Below, in pieces: positions 1 to 55,645 of a DNA stretch of 64,000 nt (within the stretch, counting starts at the first letter, position 1; each line of letters opens with the position of its first letter). The notes beneath the pieces are model-generated. The model worked only from the letters and a program-made list of their open reading frames with translations. It was not told the DNA's origin and did no database searches. Position numbers and translations under genes: made by a program. The DNA comes from Octopus sinensis (lineage: Eukaryota). Location: the NCBI RefSeq assembly GCF_006345805.1, contig NC_043008.1, positions 53,568,001 through 53,632,000 of the forward strand. Direction: 5' to 3'.

Positions 1-210
<210 letters not shown>

Positions 211-2386: not shown

Positions 2387-3520
2387 ATGATCCGGTTCTT
2401 GACTGAAGGCTGAGGGTTTCGAGTGTCCTGTCCGTGTTATTGTGTCGTCTTCTAGAGTTATACGTTCTTGTCCATGTTGTATTTTTCTACATACCTTAAC
2501 ATATATTCCAGGCGCCCCGTACCCCCCTTATCATAATGTGAGCACATATTCTTAATAATTGGTACGACTCTCTGTTTGTCTTTCTCTCTCTCTCATTTTT
2601 ACTTGATCTGTCCCCCTCTCTCTCTTTTCTCTCTACTCATCCTCTCTTTCTCTTCTCTTTCCTCTGATTCTTTGGTCTAGTCTTCCACTACCCTCCTATT
2701 TCTTTGTCTCGCTCTGCACTCACAGGTCATTCTTCGACACCCATCCCTTCTCCTCTCTGATTCCTTCTTTCTCTCTCTCTCTCTTTTTACTTGATCTGTC
2801 CCCCTCTCTCTCTTTTCTCTCTACTCATCATCTCTTTCTCTTCTCTTTCCTCTGATTCTTCCACTACCCTCCTATTCTTTGTCTCGCTCTGCACTCACAG
2901 GTCATTCTTCGACACCCATCCCTTCTCCTCTCTGATTCCTTCTTTCTCTCTCTTCTCTCTCTTTGTTGCGTTTGTCCCTCCTCTCTCTCTCTCTTCCTTT
3001 GCTTCTCTTTCTTTTCTTTTCCCTCTTCTCTGTCACGTGACTGTTGGCCGAAATCTGCCTTTCAGCTCCTGACCCTCGTCGTGTTAACATCGTTGTTTTT
3101 CGTCCGCCGCTATAAAGGCTTCTTCCAATGCGCCAGAGAAAAAATTTGTTTGCTTGTTATCAGTCGTAAGACACTTGTTGTTTTCACCGTTAATGCTTCT
3201 GTATTTCATGTTTCTGTATTCCATTATTGTTTTTTGTTTTTTTTTATATCTGTCCCTTTTGCTGTCCTGGTGTTCGTATGCATTCGATCCTTCTTCCAGG
3301 AAATCTACGCTTCCAGCTTAGTTTTTCTAATGCTCGTTGCTTAGTTTTTCTTGGAGGGCTGGCCGTGATCTAGTAATCTCAAGATTAATCAGCCGAAATT
3401 ACTACGATGATCCGGTTCTTGACTGAAGACTGAGGGTTTCGAGTGTCCTGTCCGTGTTTATTGTGTCGTCTTCTAGAGTTATACGTTCTTGTCCATGTTG
3501 TATTTTTCTACATACCTTAA
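2387..3520 (+). mobile_element. Non-coding Penelope-like/retrozyme-like element with about 113-bp terminal direct repeat
   Basis: 2387-2499 is near-identical to 3407-3520; pyrimidine-rich interior with a roughly 185-bp tandem duplication (about 2590-2950); (TA)n on both flanks; carries a permuted hammerhead. Confidence 0.7.
3361..3433 (+). ncRNA. Candidate non-circularly permuted hammerhead ribozyme
   Basis: Stem III TAGTAAT(3371-77)/ATTACTA(3398-3404), cleavage triplet AUC(3376-78), stem I TCAAGA(3379-84)/TCTTGA(3417-22), CTGAAGA(3423-29), stem II CTGA(3430-33)/TCAG(3389-92) with 2 extra nt before GAAA(3395-98). Confidence 0.65.
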
Positions 3521-3537
3521 TATATATATATTATATA

Positions 3538-3580
<43 letters not shown>

Positions 3581-3618
3581 ATATATACATATATATACAT
3601 GTATATACATGTACATAT

Positions 3619-4403
3619 CGAAATCAATACGGGACCTGGGGATAGACATGAGTGACGATGCATCTTTTTCTTCACACATCGCGAAGGTGGCGACAATGTG
3701 CAGACGACTCACTGGCTGGATCCTGAGGACATTCCGGACAAGAGACTGCGAGACCATGTTGACACTATGGAGGACATTTGTCCTAAGCCGCCTGGACTAC
3801 TGCTCCCAACTGTGGTCACCGCATAGTGTCAAACTAACCACAGAGCTCGAGACAATCCAAAGACATTTCACCAAGAGGATTTCCACCATGAAAGAAAAGA
3901 ACTATTGGGAGAGGCTTAGGGAACTCAATTTGTACTCCTTGGAACGAAGACGAGAGAGGTATGCAGTGATATACATATGGAAAATCCTGGAGGGACTAGC
4001 ACCAAATTTTGGAATTGAGAGCTGTTCCAATCCCCGTACAGGACGTCACTGTGTGATGCCAAAGGTCCCGTCTTCCACATCCAGGGTAAGGAGCAGATAC
4101 TGTAATAGCCTGGGGTTCAGGGGCCCTCAGCTTTTCAACAGACTGCCAAGAAAACTAAGAGATCTACATGATGCGGATGTTGACATTTTCAAAAAACATC
4201 TAGACAAGCTGCTTTCCGGGATCCCAGATGAACCCACTGCAAGGTACGAAGGTAACCTAAGGGCAGCAGCTACAAACTCTCTCTTAGATCAGTGGCCAGC
4301 CACGGCAAACTGGACTTAGAGAGGGTAGCAACAAGGGCGGTGCCCCAGCATGGCCTCAGCCGGATGGCTGAAACAAGTAAAAGAGTAAAAGAGTAAAAGA
4401 GTA
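3619..4403 (+). mobile_element. 5'-truncated CR1-group LINE (C-terminal ORF2 plus 3' UTR and tail)
   Basis: Open frame to stop at 4319 with RDLGI..., VLSRLDYCSQLWSP, LETIQRHFTK, YWERLRELNLYSLERRRER, FNRLP, FKKHLD, typical of the post-RT region of CR1/L2-group ORF2; ends in a stem-loop and (GTAAAAGA)n. The ORF track's N-terminal YIYI part is microsatellite read-through. Confidence 0.92.
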
Positions 4404-14782: not shown

Positions 14783-14834
14783 ATGCATATGTATGTATGT
14801 ATATATGTAATATATATATATAAGGAGAGAAAGA

Positions 14835-15265
14835 AAGAGAGACATGCATATCTGGGTAGAGGACGTCACCAATGGTGCAAATAACATGAAATACGCAAAC
14901 GAGGGAAAAATGAGGGGAATACGTAAACAACGAGAAGGAAAATGGAAAACAGGACAATTAATCACTGGGAAAGGACCCTTCATCAGTTGTCGGCTGTGTA
15001 TCAATCCTCATTTCGAGCATTCAACGACAATATCAGTCTTCAAAGACAGTTGCGCCCATAAATTCTAAAATAAAGTTTAAGATTTATAGAAGGTCATAGT
15101 TGGGAACAAAACAAATGACAGCGGAGACATACAAGGAAACCGAACGAAAACAAACATGGAGGGTCGTTGGACCAGAACGAGAAGAAATTAGTGAAGGCTG
15201 GGAGAAACATTTTTTTTTTTTGTTTTGAAAAGGGAAATGGTAGAAATGAGAAAGAAAAACACACA
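14835..15265 (-). mobile_element. Fragment of a non-coding element carrying a permuted hammerhead
   Basis: Architecture and 3' end (GTGACGTCCTCTACCCAGATAT) resemble 54544-55452 (GTGGTGTCCTGTACTCACGTAT). Boundaries approximate. Confidence 0.55.
14975..15051 (-). ncRNA. Candidate non-circularly permuted hammerhead ribozyme
   Basis: Minus strand gacuga-UA-uugucg-uugaau-gcuc-GAAA-ugag...cagc-cgacaa-CUGAUGA-a-gggu; stem I 6 bp perfect, stem II GGGU/GCUC, stem III with one mismatch. Confidence 0.65.
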
Positions 15266-15749
15266 TATATTAATAATGCATATTCAAAGGCATAAATGGT
15301 GTTAAAACAGCAGAGAACGGTTAGATTTATCCAAGGCTGATTGGTGACATATTTTTCCGCTTTGTATGGATATTTTATCCAATCTCTGCTGTTCTATCAG
15401 CATTTATGCGCTTGAAAATGAATTATCTTATTTGTATCTCACAATACATATTTCAACGCTTCTAAAGCAAACATTAGTTTGTTTACATTTATCGCAATAT
15501 ATATATATGCATACATACATGCGTACACAGACACATATATATATATGTATATATGTATGTGTATTTATAAATATACACACATACGTACACATATACATAT
15601 ATATATATATATATATGTTTATCTATCTCTTCGTGTGTATATATGTGTGTGTGTGTAAATATAATATGCAAATATAATAATTATTCGGAATGATTGTCAC
15701 ATATTATATTTACAGATAAATTCCTCTATTTACATAATATTGTAATATA

Positions 15750-31059: not shown

Positions 31060-31940
31060 ATGCCGGGAGCTATGCTTCGGCGACGAAAACGCTGGAGGTG
31101 CGTGAAGTATGAATTGAAAGGAAGAATTTGGAGTGTTGTAAGGAACTGATCCAAAAAGAGAAGTCAAGTTTAAGGTCCACCCCTCCAGAGGAATTAACCA
31201 GAAGAATGAGGAGGACAGTGGTGTACAGAACGCCGTACATAACCAATAAAATAGAGATGGCATCAGAGGAAGCCATTGAGAAATGTATGGAAGACGTGAA
31301 GAGTGCCGTGAAATTCTACACTAGAGGGAGAAGATATGGCACAGTGGAGGTAGGTGAGGTTTGTCACCGAAGAAGAAGCAATAAATCACTCCACTGTGCC
31401 ACTGAGATCACAAGAATAGGTGCTCCTGCCGATCTATTGCGACAAAAGAGTTGCAAGAATTAGAATCAGCAGAGTGCCACCTGAAATCTAAGAAGCATGA
31501 CTGGTGACAACCGTGATGTACGGAATCAAAGAGAACGCAAAGTTAATCTAAGTTGCAAGAACGAAGAAAATGAATTGTTGGGGTACGGCTTGGAAATGGT
31601 TATCCAGGCCACCCAGCAAGACTTGAATGAAATAGCAAAAGAGGTGCTGTTGCCTGAAGATACAAACCTGGGAGATGTGGTAGAGGGGCACATTAAAATA
31701 AAGTACCCCCAGATAAGTAGTGAAACTACAGAGAACCAGGAAGAACGTAGGCGTACTGTAACGGCAGCCCAAGCCCAAGATGAGGGTATGGAAGAAATAG
31801 AGGAGGAGGGATTCGCCGAATTATCGAAAAGGGAAAGAAAGGATACTGTGAAAACACCCCCTATATGTACAAAGAAGAAGAGGAATAGCAAAACAGAGGA
31901 GATTATACAGCAAGCAGACAACACAAAAAGTTCGAAATAG
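31060..31940 (+). pseudogene. Frameshifted non-LTR retrotransposon ORF1-like (gag-like) remnant
   Basis: SYASATK..., EEAIEKCMEDVKSAVKFYTRGRRYGTVEV/(fs)RFVTEEEA...LLPIYCDKRVARIRISRVPPEI*; intronless with stops, acidic/basic C-terminal tail. Family assignment is inference. Confidence 0.5.
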
Positions 31941-32048: not shown

Positions 32049-32377
32049 TAGAAATGGTTCAGATTAGATTTATATTTTTCAATGAGGTAAGTTTCTTTAT
32101 TTAAAAATGCTAGAAATGGTTAAGTTTTGGTTTACATTTTTCAATGAAGTAGGTTTCCTTATTTAATTTAACTTGTGTTGGTGTTCCAATTGGACATTGA
32201 TAGAAAGGTAAGATTACAAATTGTGGTAGCAGTTGTTTTGCGCATCTCTCAATGTGTTCAGTAAAGGGTATCATTCTGTATTCTGGGAATGCAATCTGCT
32301 GTCCGTGTAGATGGCATCTGCGTCTGGACAATAATCCGGTAGACCCTATGTAACTCTGGTGGCAGGCTGAGTATCTT

Positions 32378-32380
<3 letters not shown>
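32049..32380 (-). pseudogene. Penelope-like GIY-YIG endonuclease C-terminal fragment
   Basis: VIRYSACHQSYIGSTG...RR..LHGQQI..PEYRMIPFTEHIERC...FVILPFY...KETYFIEKCKPKLN*; last 56 bp are duplicated at 32049-32104. Confidence 0.88.
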
Positions 32381-33703: not shown

Positions 33704-33780
33704 CTGATACGGAAGGGAATATGGCAACTACTCTTTATTGTCGGGGGATGTCACTTGATTGGGTATGATGTGAAGCCGGC

Positions 33781-34110
33781 AAGTATGTGGGGCAGTAAAA
33801 GCCCCTTCAGAACCCGCTTTAATAACCACAAGTCTTCATTCAACATCCCAGAGAGAAGTAACGCTACAACCCTAGCCAAGCACATCTGGACTTTGAAATA
33901 AAGCGTCACAGAGTACAGCATAAAGTGGAAGATCCTAGAAAGCTACAAACGTATTTCAATAGCAGCAGGAAGAGCAGATTATGCCTGGCTGAGGCGAGAG
34001 CTATTTTAAAAGGTACCCAACGCCCGGATGTTTACCTGAATAGCAGGAGTGAGGTGTTTAATCCTTGCCTGCATGAAAGGAAATATATTCTATCGTACCT
34101 GCGCGCCTAA
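33781..34110 (+). pseudogene. Penelope-like (Neptune-type) GIY-YIG endonuclease C-terminal fragment
   Basis: KYVG/(fs)PFRTRFNNHKSSF...NATTLAKHIWTLK*...YSIKWKIL/(fs)...RLCLAEARAI...LNSRSEVFNPCLHERKY. Confidence 0.88.
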
Positions 34111-36370: not shown

Positions 36371-36846
36371 TATTATTATTATTATTAATTTTATGGTTGA
36401 GAACGTAAAATTAAATCAAAATTCCGCCATATATACGGCAAAAATATGACAAACAAACTATACTTTCATTATAATATAAACAAATAGTAGATAGAGCTTC
36501 TACTAATTTTCTTATCGCTTCCCAAATAGTATTAACTTATCACTGATTTTTTTTTGCTTCGTAACACACACACACACACGCACACACACACACACACATA
36601 TATATATACATGTATGTACATATATATATAGGCACAGAAGTGGATCTGTGGTAAGAAGCTTGCTTACCAGCCACGTGGTCCTAGGTTCAGTCCCAAGCAT
36701 GCCTATACCACGGCATAACTTCATGCTTATATATCAGTGGTACAGGTTACAAAGCTGAGGCAGTATACAAGCTGTTGACTAAGTAGGTAGCGATATGAAG
36801 ATAGAATAGGGTGGTATAGATAAATATGGCTGATCTAAAACTATAT

Positions 36847-52631: not shown

Positions 52632-52910
52632 GACTGCGTGTGTACCGTTGGCGATTTTATTTCCTCCGTCTTCCCTTCTCTGGATCTTTCCTTCTCCTAT
52701 GTTTCTGACGAAGAGTTCCGCTCGAAACGTTGAACCCTCCTTCATCCCTTCCTTCCTGAGCGTCCAATAATACTATATTTGTTCCACGTCCTCGCGTTGT
52801 TGTGTTTTCTCTTTGTGTTTTCATGTTTGGATTAACTTTATATAGATATATGTATATATTTATTTCCGTAAACCTGCCTTCGTTTTTGTCTATTCTCATA
52901 AAGCTTCCCG
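52632..52910 (+). mobile_element. Penelope-related terminal repeat with intact minimal hammerhead (52701-52735)
   Basis: GUUU-CUGACGA-A-GAGUUCCGCUC-GAAA-CG-UU-GAAC. Confidence 0.82.
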
Positions 52911-53805: not shown

Positions 53806-54543
53806 CCTATATATGTATAGATATACATATATATTTATATATTTATGTATGTCACATACGCATAGACATACATGTATATATATTCATGTATATAAAAATG
53901 TACTTGTGCTTACAAAGATTATATGCGTGCGTGTGTGTGTGTGTGTATTTTTATATATAATTTTCTTATATCTGTCAACACATTATATTAATTCATGTAT
54001 AATTTACTCTTTTTACGATACGAAAAAAACCGCCATATGTATTATGTCTTTATTTTTAATCACTAGAGTATACATCATCATGATCGCCATCATCATACTC
54101 CGCATCCTTCTCCTCCACATCATCACCGTATTCATCAATATCGTATTATATATCTTGTTTTATTTCCCTCTTTTATGTTACATTGTTTAAGCAATCTGTT
54201 TTTGCTGTCGTGAAATGATACAAAAAAAAAGACGAAGGTGAGGGAAGCGAAGACAAACGGCTTTCAGTTGCTTTACTGCGTTTGTTGTCTTTATTTCTAT
54301 CCTGCGTATCTCTGTGTGCAATATTGAAACGTAAACGTACAATATATTTTAATACTAGCTGTTTTCAAATACGTTCGCACATCCGTTTGCTAGATCTCCG
54401 AATATAGCTGCTATTATTCTGCGATGACTGAAGCTTAATCGCAAGCACGCACACAAACACACACACACACACACCACACACACACACACACACACGCACA
54501 CACACACACATATACATATATATTTACTCTACTCTTTTTACTC

Positions 54544-55452
54544 GCATATATTTTATTTATTACACTATTGTATGACTGAGCGCCCTCGCGTCGATTCGAT
54601 TCGATTCGTTCGTTTCGTTTCGTTCTTCTTCTCCAAGTACTGTTTTTATATATAATTATGACGCGAAACTCTTACCTCTTTGCTTTACCTTCCCTTCTTT
54701 CCCTATCTCTCTCTCACTCCTCCTCATCTCTCTCAGCCGCTTGTCTTCCTCTATCTCTTTCTCTCCCTCTCACTCCTCCTCATCTCTCTCACAGCCAGCC
54801 AACTCTTCCTTTTACACGCGGCCTTCTAACTGTAAACACACGGTTTTCCTTGCGCTCTCCAGAATCTTCCTCGTCTAGGCCAAAAAAGGCCCTTTTCGTT
54901 TGTTTTTCTTGTTTTGTTTTTATTTCTCGTATTATAATTTTTTGTAATTGTATTTTTATTTTGTATTTTATTTTGTATTTTTATTTGTATCGTTTTTACG
55001 TCCTGTTTTTGTTACATTTTTTCTTTCTTTGTTTTTACCCCTCTGCGAAGTAATTTTATTTAATTTCTTCGCAGGAAGGGCTAGTTCGGCGAGTCGTGTT
55101 CTGTCCTACCTTCGAAACACGCTGGAGTTGAACTAGGGACAGCTGATGAAGGGGATTTTTTCCTTATGTAGTTTGTCTTGTACTCTGTTTTTCGTTGTAA
55201 AAAAATGGTCTGTTCGATGCTTGTTTTTCCGTTTTCGTTTCTCGTTGAGTTCTACGTCTATTTGTGGTGTCCTGTACTCACGTATATATATTTATATATG
55301 CATGTATATATACATGTAGATGTAGGTACGTACATATAGGTATGTTTCTATGCATATATTTTATTTATTACACTATTGTATGACTGAGCGCCCTCGCGTC
55401 GATTCGATTCGATTCGTTCGTTTCGTTTCGTTCTTCTTCTCCAAGTACTGTT
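54544..55452 (+). mobile_element. Non-coding element with 101-bp terminal direct repeat (808-bp period), carrying a permuted hammerhead
   Basis: 54544-54644 matches 55352-55452; pyrimidine-rich interior; same layout as 2387-3520. Confidence 0.75.
55081..55154 (+). ncRNA. Candidate non-circularly permuted hammerhead ribozyme
   Basis: Stem III CGTGT(55095-99)/ACACG(55117-21), triplet GUU, stem I CTGTCC(55101-06)/GGACAG(55137-42), CTGATGA(55143-49), A, stem II GGGG(55151-54)/CTTC(55110-13), GAAA(55114-17); extra helix CTAGTTC(55081-87)/GAACTAG(55130-36). Confidence 0.72.
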
Positions 55453-55485
55453 ATATATATGTATATATATATGTATGTATATATA

Positions 55486-55622
55486 CGACACGCTTTGTTT
55501 TAGTTTCCGTCTACCAAATCCACTCACAAGACTTTGGTCGTTCGAAGCTATAGTAGAAGGCAGTTGGACTGAACTCGGAACCATGTGGTTCGTAAGCAAT
55601 CTTCTTACCAAATAATCACTCC
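55486..55622 (-). mobile_element. Family A SINE, 5' half with internal deletion
   Basis: AGTTTCCGTCTACCAAATCCACTCACAAG...GGAACCATGTGGTTCGTAAGCAA. Confidence 0.85.
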
Positions 55623-55645
55623 TATACACACACACACACACACAC

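Follow-up and report, generated by a model that had tools for sequence, protein, structure and literature searches.

A terminally redundant, non-coding and probably Penelope-like element of octopus with a predicted non-nested hammerhead whose core is split by two helices

Introduction

Within the 64 kb of Octopus sinensis DNA analysed here (the window), a repeat at 54544..55452, which we call element A, holds the parts of a hammerhead ribozyme in permuted order and carries the same sequence at both of its ends. What kind of element is this, how did it come to be slightly longer than one unit, and could a hammerhead arranged in this way fold and cut? The reading that we prefer, with a probability of roughly 0.6, is that element A represents a single insertion from a high-copy family of non-autonomous Penelope-like elements (PLEs), most likely mobilised in trans by the reverse transcriptase (RT) and GIY-YIG enzymes of the Naiad clade, and laid down as a partial tandem.

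Published systems are cited below from the portions of their texts that were available to us. In that portion of Eckert et al. (2023, PMC10085705), non-circular hammerhead permutations (types SGC and CSG) come only from meta-omic, viroid-like contexts, and the classification assumed that CUGAnGA is inseparable from stem II. If our reading of the fold is right, the high-copy occurrence of a conserved split fold in an animal genome would enlarge the known range of designs for the best-studied small ribozyme.

Anatomy of element A and its insertion site

Element A consists of an 808-bp unit plus a 101-bp direct repeat. Positions 54544-54644 and 55352-55452 are identical at 101/101 letters with a spacing of 808, the identity extends past neither edge of the repeat, and the unit with a repeat of its own start that the earlier note had described is thus exact. 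The upstream terminal repeat (54544..54644, + strand) is a pLTR-like, 5′-truncated copy of the unit's 3′ end and is devoid of the hammerhead core. The full 808-bp non-coding unit (54645..55452, +) starts with a short TA-rich tract and ends with the downstream terminal repeat (55352..55452, +), which is the unit's 3′ end; between them lie a C/T-rich tract within which 47 nt are duplicated at 83% identity (54689..54791, +), and an internal degenerate TA tract just ahead of the downstream repeat (55282..55351, +). The C/T-rich first half noted earlier is also present (76-77% C+T at 54645-54846), though the whole + strand is T-rich as well. The window contains no further copies of element A.

Element A is non-coding. 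Its longest stop-to-stop frame (157 aa) and longest ATG frame (131 aa) are both low-complexity, and the 157-aa and 100-aa frames have no Pfam match, in agreement with the earlier statement that no credible ORF is present; a coding element was set aside on these grounds. Neither TG..CA ends nor a TSD is present, and the hammerhead core is absent from the 101-bp repeat, so that no ribozyme lies inside the LTR-like repeats; an LTR element or LTR retrozyme, with a ribozyme in both repeats, was rejected accordingly. The locus had been proposed to be a non-coding, terminally redundant Penelope-type retroelement, with TG..CA ends and TSDs named as the signs to the contrary, and their absence supports the proposal.

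On the left, element A is flanked by the approximately 20-nt head of a host repeat of about 420 bp (54525..54543, +), recognised by comparison with full copies at 36831, 18591, 23401 and 43669. On the right, where its 3′ end runs into (TA)n, a (TA)n target tract is followed by the second half of the same host repeat (55453..55623, +). This host repeat, which we take to resemble an octopus repeat, recurs often in the window; at the element A site, about 200 bp are missing between its two halves. From these flanks we infer an insertion at a (TA)n tract with loss of target DNA. The microsatellite flanks reported earlier therefore hold for the right side but not for the left, where the adjoining sequence is the host-repeat head and (CA)n sits 34 bp further left.

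The terminal repeat also carries a motif of CUGA, a small hairpin and GUC at 54577-54591 (and again at 55385-55399), which is not a hammerhead core. The end of this motif can pair across the repeat/body junction (54662-54668), and a comparable stretch is found close to the 3′ end of a record that we read as Naiad_Sdum (name inferred).

A predicted hammerhead fold with a split core

The hammerhead core of element A lies at 55095-55154 in the order S-G-C and is the window's sole strong three-block match, none occurring in 60 shuffled windows; the hairpin/hammerhead region folds with z = -3.95. The ribozyme module as a whole spans 55038-55154, all on the + strand. It begins with the 5′ strand of P4 (55038..55042), which pairs with 55150-55154 by 5 Watson-Crick pairs, and continues with the P0 hairpin (55043..55074), directly 5′ of G10.1, and the 5′ strand of stem II (10.x; 55075..55079), which pairs with 55109-55113, also by 5 Watson-Crick pairs. 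The extended stem III (55081..55136) follows, built from a 10-bp outer helix (55081-90/55127-36) and a 5-bp core helix (55095-99/55117-21). Block S (55098..55106) contains the GUU triplet, a cut site predicted by analogy after 55100, and the stem I strand 55101-55106; block G (55109..55121) contains the stem II 3′ strand, GAAA (55114-55117) and a stem III strand; and block C (55137..55154) contains the other stem I strand (55137-42), CUGAUGA (55143-49) and then the 3′ strand of P4. The order is thus P4, P0, stem II 5′ strand, extended stem III, cut site, stem I, stem II 3′ strand, GAAA, stem III, stem I, CUGAUGA, P4. The core is complete (CUGANGA, GAAA, and NUH with A15.1-U16.1), helices I, II and III flanking it have 6, 5 and 5 Watson-Crick pairs, respectively, and the linker from stem I to stem II is 2 nt long.

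A classical type I hammerhead does not describe this arrangement, as the order is S-G-C and the hairpin after CUGAUGA is not followed by GAAA. To judge from the sequence, the hammerhead is non-nested (S-G-C), yet it is probably not a plain type SGC. Because P4 pairs the bases after CUGAUGA and P0 sits between P4 and the upstream strand of stem II, the chain runs from A9 into P4 and enters G10.1 from P0. The upstream stem II has a predicted stability of -7.8 kcal/mol, against -2.6 kcal/mol for a downstream stem II (4 bp, two of them G-U pairs), and a mis-registered stem II that uses G8/A9 is about as stable as the former (-7.7 kcal/mol). That register counts against activity, and so does the nested-only ensemble of 55000-55200: in this kind of folding, which cannot represent pseudoknots, P4 and stems I and II are each given a probability of 0 and a rival helix occupies their bases. 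Thus, the hairpin and permuted hammerhead that the earlier note had placed in the second half are both there (55043-55074 and 55095-55154), but the module is larger and is wired unlike a plain SGC.

No Rfam ribozyme match was found in the window, in element A, or in two metagenome loci with the same fold (L065 and L070, below). For element A this is expected, since the Rfam hammerhead models are nested, and if the split fold is real, the same property explains why nested searches (Rfam, RNAmotif) overlook it.

We consider it very likely that the split-core fold is real and probable that it cleaves. P4 and P0 would stack end to end and hold A9 beside G10.1 as at a four-way junction, and the catalytic core would then form and cut after 55100, which taken together we also regard as probable. 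The two helices inserted between A9 and G10.1 could instead disable the core.

The same fold in other elements

A four-block descriptor consisting of the upstream stem II and the extended stem III, with P0 and P4 left out and designed with sites A and C in view, finds three sites in the window compared with 0 in 200 shuffled windows; the site in element B (3357-3429) was found blind. Element B (2387..3527, +) is unrelated to element A in sequence and has the same anatomy: a 1020-bp spacing, a terminal repeat of about 120 bp (97.5% identical), a C/T-rich interior, (TA)n on both sides, and the ribozyme fold at 3357-3429. Its upstream repeat begins inside the ribozyme, 28 nt past the predicted cut site. 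Directly after its (TA)n is a frame (3600-4316, +) that presumably resembles the C-terminal part of a LINE reverse transcriptase and has no Pfam match. Element C (14821..15330, -, boundaries approximate) represents a third family, with a fold at about 15095-14974 that is probably decayed, since its stem III contains a G-G mismatch and its stem II two G-U pairs. This element ends in (TA)n and has a 70% inverted repeat upstream (15273-15426); no direct terminal repeat was found there. A minimal canonical (nested) Penelope-type hammerhead core is also present in the window, at 52700-52735 (+), in a different repeat.

Among loci fetched by their core words, the four-block fold was found in 2/84 metagenome loci and in 0 of at least 120 viral, 0/3 further viral and 0/36 prokaryote-genome loci; the exact element A family pattern was found at 0 metagenome loci. 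The two positive loci, L065 and L070, are homologous (78-88%) and form one family of redundant units of about 970 and 959 bp, respectively, with no long ORF and 51-52% GC. L065 is redundant end-to-end, and L070 is a partial tandem that forms a pLTR, its redundant unit lying within 94-1109. Four of their stem I pairs were fixed by the fetch pattern, and the other helices were free to vary. Another metagenome locus, L006, was discarded as an example of the fold because it has stems I and III only.

By a strict rule, P0 and P4 are both present at 4/5 sites (3/4 families), against 27-75 of 400 random positions; site B fails this rule and passes only a looser one. The upstream stem II has 5-6 pairs at all five sites, and the downstream alternative has 4 pairs at A and C, 2 at L065 and L070, and 0 at B. 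The helix pairs differ across the four families with pairing retained; these counts were not drawn from the MAFFT alignments of the modules, which are out of register.

The element A family in public sequence runs

Element A belongs to a high-copy family. Parts of the family occur in public runs under five organism labels (20/24 rows among the matches listed), and four runs contain 2451, 2805, 898 and 484 contigs that match it at 80% likeness. None of the runs listed is recorded as RNA, though run X12 may be. The summed depth in one run (X2) is 130,000-518,000 over 55015-55179 versus 4,000-31,000 over 54586-54849, which is not a copy number. Overall the 3′ half of the family is about 10-fold deeper than the 5′ half, and as depth tracks divergence too, this may reflect either 5′ truncation or divergence.

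Among the matches listed, there is no contig that spans the whole of element A and there are no pile-ups of ends. Contigs that run from the repeat into the body make up 5/32 of the pieces listed and have 3-16 differing letters, which suggests that this junction is a trait of the family rather than a local duplication. The earlier note had asked whether the 101-bp repeat is unique to the locus; the diverged contigs speak against this, but they reach only 18-28 letters past the junction, where our rule for bridging is 31.

The family's variants are unphased, and what follows concerns the variant rows listed. At the P0 T-T mismatch (55051, 55066) most of the depth reads G and C; at 55089 most of it reads A, turning a G-U pair of the outer stem III into A-U; a T-to-C variant at 55129 turns G-U into G-C; and a G-to-A variant at 55047 accompanies loose ends that read T at 55070. 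The pairs of P0 and the outer stem III are thus kept or restored by the variants, and none of the variant rows listed falls on a core letter of the hammerhead.

Relationship to Naiad Penelope-like elements

Naiads are PLEs that form partial tandems, prefer (TA)n targets, and have been reported to have eight hammerhead "half cores" and no canonical hammerheads (Craig et al. 2021, PMC8557442). We read by eye the last 400-600 letters of 32/54 Naiad consensus records, with names inferred from the header and the file order. The split-core fold with P0 and P4 appears in eight of these 3′ ends (Obim, Ovul, Plae, 4_Dst, 2_Movir, 3_Chem, Esco and Bfor), with mismatches in stem II and P4 of Esco and a stem I of only 2 bp in Bfor. 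Six of the 32 carry a complete type CSG (Hpol, Hcon, Parc, 2_Nbra, 3_Nbra, Ptep), 2/32 a complete SGC in which a helix separates stems I and II (Ppla, Smim), and 2/32 an S-G-C arrangement with stems I and III only (Lpol, 1_Dst). The remaining 14/32 showed no fold that could be resolved by eye (Mmer, Omin, Adux, Sdum, 2_Dst, 3_Dst, 1_Chem, 4_Chem, Tama, CGi, Tgra, Mcor, Asuum, 1_Movir), several of these records being incomplete or ending beyond the 400-600-letter excerpt. In the same by-eye reading, 7/8 of the half cores resolve into permuted folds, which would answer the stated puzzle of Naiads without canonical hammerheads. In the two Octopus Naiads, both among the eight with the split-core fold, stem I differs by eye from that of element A by one compensatory pair (C-G for U-A). 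Separately, the Naiad 5′ ends 1_Skow, Cmel, Sglo, Pmar, Mgal and Amil share a short motif around GCTGGTGGA that looks like structured RNA.

Outside the ribozyme, element A and the Naiads were found to share no sequence in a search of the Naiad consensus file with four short motifs, of which three gave 0 matches and one matched only a Chlamys record. The 64-kb window was also checked for Naiad protein motifs and gave none. The available text of PMC8557442 describes cephalopod Naiads as long-inactive remnants and makes no mention of a non-autonomous Naiad; the identity of element A's two repeats, set against such long inactivity, counts against a Naiad partner. By analogy with the Naiad folds, we nevertheless think that element A probably rides on Naiad enzymes.

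The enzymes had earlier been attributed to PLEs such as those whose GIY-YIG relics were placed at 32049-32380 and 33781-34110, and this attribution gained no support. The first relic (32113-32379, -) is broken and is GIY-YIG-like by ESM Atlas only (0.93, with the family on 23-31% of cluster members); the second (33704-34107, +) is a broken, PLE-like endonuclease relic whose piece 33862-34107 has no usable match. Neither has Pfam support. Both lie about 20 kb from element A and have no sequence in common with it, and by motif we take both to be C-terminal endonucleases, unlike the N-terminal endonuclease of Naiad. The ribozyme fold points to the Naiad clade rather than to these nearby relics. 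Elsewhere in the window, 31113-31937 (+) contains two stop-free frames (116 and 151 aa) that resemble mobile-element protein fragments, and positions 1-64 (-) give an Rfam tRNA-like match (34.2 bits) that is probably a SINE head.

Proposed mechanism and alternative explanations

Under our preferred reading, a PLE endonuclease would have nicked the (TA)n tract inside the host repeat. On an RNA longer than one unit, RT would then have begun at a UA-rich position, passed through a ribozyme that was uncut or had been re-joined, completed one unit and ended 101 nt inside the following one; about 200 bp of target DNA would have been lost in the process. Measured from the predicted cut, element A begins 557 nt upstream and ends 352 nt downstream, and the upstream repeat of element B starts 28 nt beyond its own predicted cut. 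Because of these offsets we infer that cleavage sets neither end, in which case the site that RT passes must be uncut or re-joined. In vitro tests of one PLE, PAc, show that RT starts at internal positions, that hammerhead cleavage is protein-dependent and dispensable, and that uncut RNA serves as the principal template (PMC11167929, available portion). This behaviour favours read-through tandems, and we consider a read-through tandem transcript about twice as likely a template as a circle. A 5′-truncated read-through tandem explains a single ribozyme and ends away from the cut site equally well as circles do, and any circular route strikes us as somewhat unlikely. If real, the split-core fold offers a handle on whether Penelope partial tandems arise from circles.

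As to the fold, the active form might be an ordinary type-SGC hammerhead in which the downstream G-run supplies stem II and one A is bulged, the upstream helices being inhibitory or unrelated. Sites A and C do allow a 4-bp downstream stem II, PLE hammerheads often have a bulged base 5′ of stem II (PMC4209133), and complete SGC forms are visible by eye in 2 Naiad ends. We nonetheless find this very unlikely, given that the downstream pairing in element A is weak (-2.6 kcal/mol, with its two G-U pairs) and falls to 0 bp in B and 2 bp in L065 and L070, that the upstream pairing persists at all five sites, and that the downstream bases form P4. The split fold could also be real but non-catalytic, a hammerhead-derived protein-binding or RT-recognition element. 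The dispensable, protein-dependent cleavage of PAc (PMC11167929), the unusual split at A9/G10.1, and the several Naiad families with no such fold by eye would all fit this idea. Retention of CUGANGA, GAAA, A15.1-U16.1 and NUH (never NUG) at the five sites and in the by-eye Naiad cases makes it improbable in our view; the Naiad cases carry this argument, since the first four sites were partly selected for those letters.

As to the route, a retrozyme-like circle would arise if a tandem or read-through RNA were cut at successive ribozymes, the monomer ends, still clamped by P4, stem II and stem III, were re-joined, and RT went slightly over one turn. The cut 5′ and 3′ fragments of element A are predicted still to pair (co-fold -40.7 versus -31.0 kcal/mol apart), its two repeats are identical though the family varies there, L065 is redundant from end to end, and circles have been proposed for PLEs (PMC4209133) and demonstrated for type I retrozymes (PMC7229834). 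Elements A and B, however, have one ribozyme per copy, so these loci alone cannot release a monomer; the element A unit has only 46% of its bases paired, carries no core on the minus strand and does not resemble a viroid; an end-redundant contig may be a collapsed tandem; and PAc in vitro reverse transcribes mainly uncut RNA (PMC11167929). On balance we are doubtful of this route. The mover might instead be a PLE of another clade (Neptune, Poseidon or Hydra type) or a LINE, with the ribozyme acquired separately: the relic at 32113-32379 is GIY-YIG-like, Hydra PLEs, which are present in Octopus, likewise target (TA)n, and cephalopod Naiads look old (PMC8557442). This too seems unlikely, as Hydra and other PLEs have canonical hammerheads (PMC8557442 File S2), and the relics are broken, 20 kb off and unrelated in sequence to element A. 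A bolder form of the split-core reading is that it is an active new hammerhead topology, with its core split at A9/G10.1 and bridged by stacked P4:P0, carried by Naiads of several animal phyla and by several families of non-coding satellites of about 1 kb that depend on them, and serving as a cut-and-rejoin device that circularises tandem transcripts, which then template longer-than-unit insertions. The cut-and-rejoin role is suggested by the cut ends remaining clamped by about 25 base pairs; we regard this form of the reading as rather unlikely. Our preference stays with a non-autonomous PLE insertion made in trans, most likely by Naiad enzymes, as a partial tandem.

Comparison with known systems

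Among the literature matches listed, which cover few subscription papers, there is no report of permuted hammerheads in Naiads or other animal repeats, or of a split core, and the term "Type-SGC" is used only by Eckert et al. (PMC10085705). The available portions of PMC10162972, PMC7936874, PMC6765202, PMC13282606 and bioRxiv 2026.09.16.752053 show no split-core fold, and a tested precedent for a two-helix insertion between A9 and G10.1 was not found in the literature searched, as far as those texts were available. Weinberg 2015 is cited in PMC13725137 among reports of hammerheads with additional helices, and these variants may lessen the novelty of the extra helices in element A.

Plant LTR retrozymes are similar to element A in size and terminal redundancy, but they have type III hammerheads in their LTRs and 4-bp TSDs (bioRxiv 10.64898/2026.07.22.740005), both of which element A lacks. 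The non-LTR retrozymes of animals are, like element A, non-coding hammerhead repeats of low GC, and are thought to use PLE enzymes (PMC7229834; bioRxiv 10.64898/2026.07.22.740005). They differ in having nested type I hammerheads, at least two ribozyme-bearing tandem units and demonstrated circles (PMC7229834), where element A has 1.125 units and one non-nested ribozyme. The possible retrozyme-like system of the earlier note thus fails on hammerhead type (not type I) and on copy arrangement (one ribozyme-bearing unit at this locus).

The non-autonomous Chlamys PLEs such as MRC1 are, like element A, non-coding PLE derivatives, and those of the MRC1 type make pLTRs and head-to-tail insertions; they differ in being green algal, in having 3′ sequence in common with a known partner, and in having no ribozyme described in the available text (PMC8557442). 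With Naiad, element A has in common the partial tandem, the (TA)n target, the lack of a TSD, and a fold recognised by eye near the 3′ end. Naiads are 3.4-4.4 kb long with an EN-RT ORF (PMC8557442), whereas element A is 0.8 kb and has no EN-RT ORF, and no sequence shared with them was found outside the ribozyme.

With respect to the ribozyme itself, the closest described forms are the type-SGC and type-CSG hammerheads of Eckert et al. (PMC10085705), which element A resembles in placing S before G, in its short linker between stems I and II, in its three mutually crossing helices, and in its full core. In those types CUGAnGA stands beside the stem II strand, and no insertion of more than 1-2 nt between the two is known in the available portion of that report (PMC10085705). 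The chain of element A, as we read it, is split at exactly this point (A9/G10.1) by P4 and P0, and it is found in a high-copy repeat of an animal genome.
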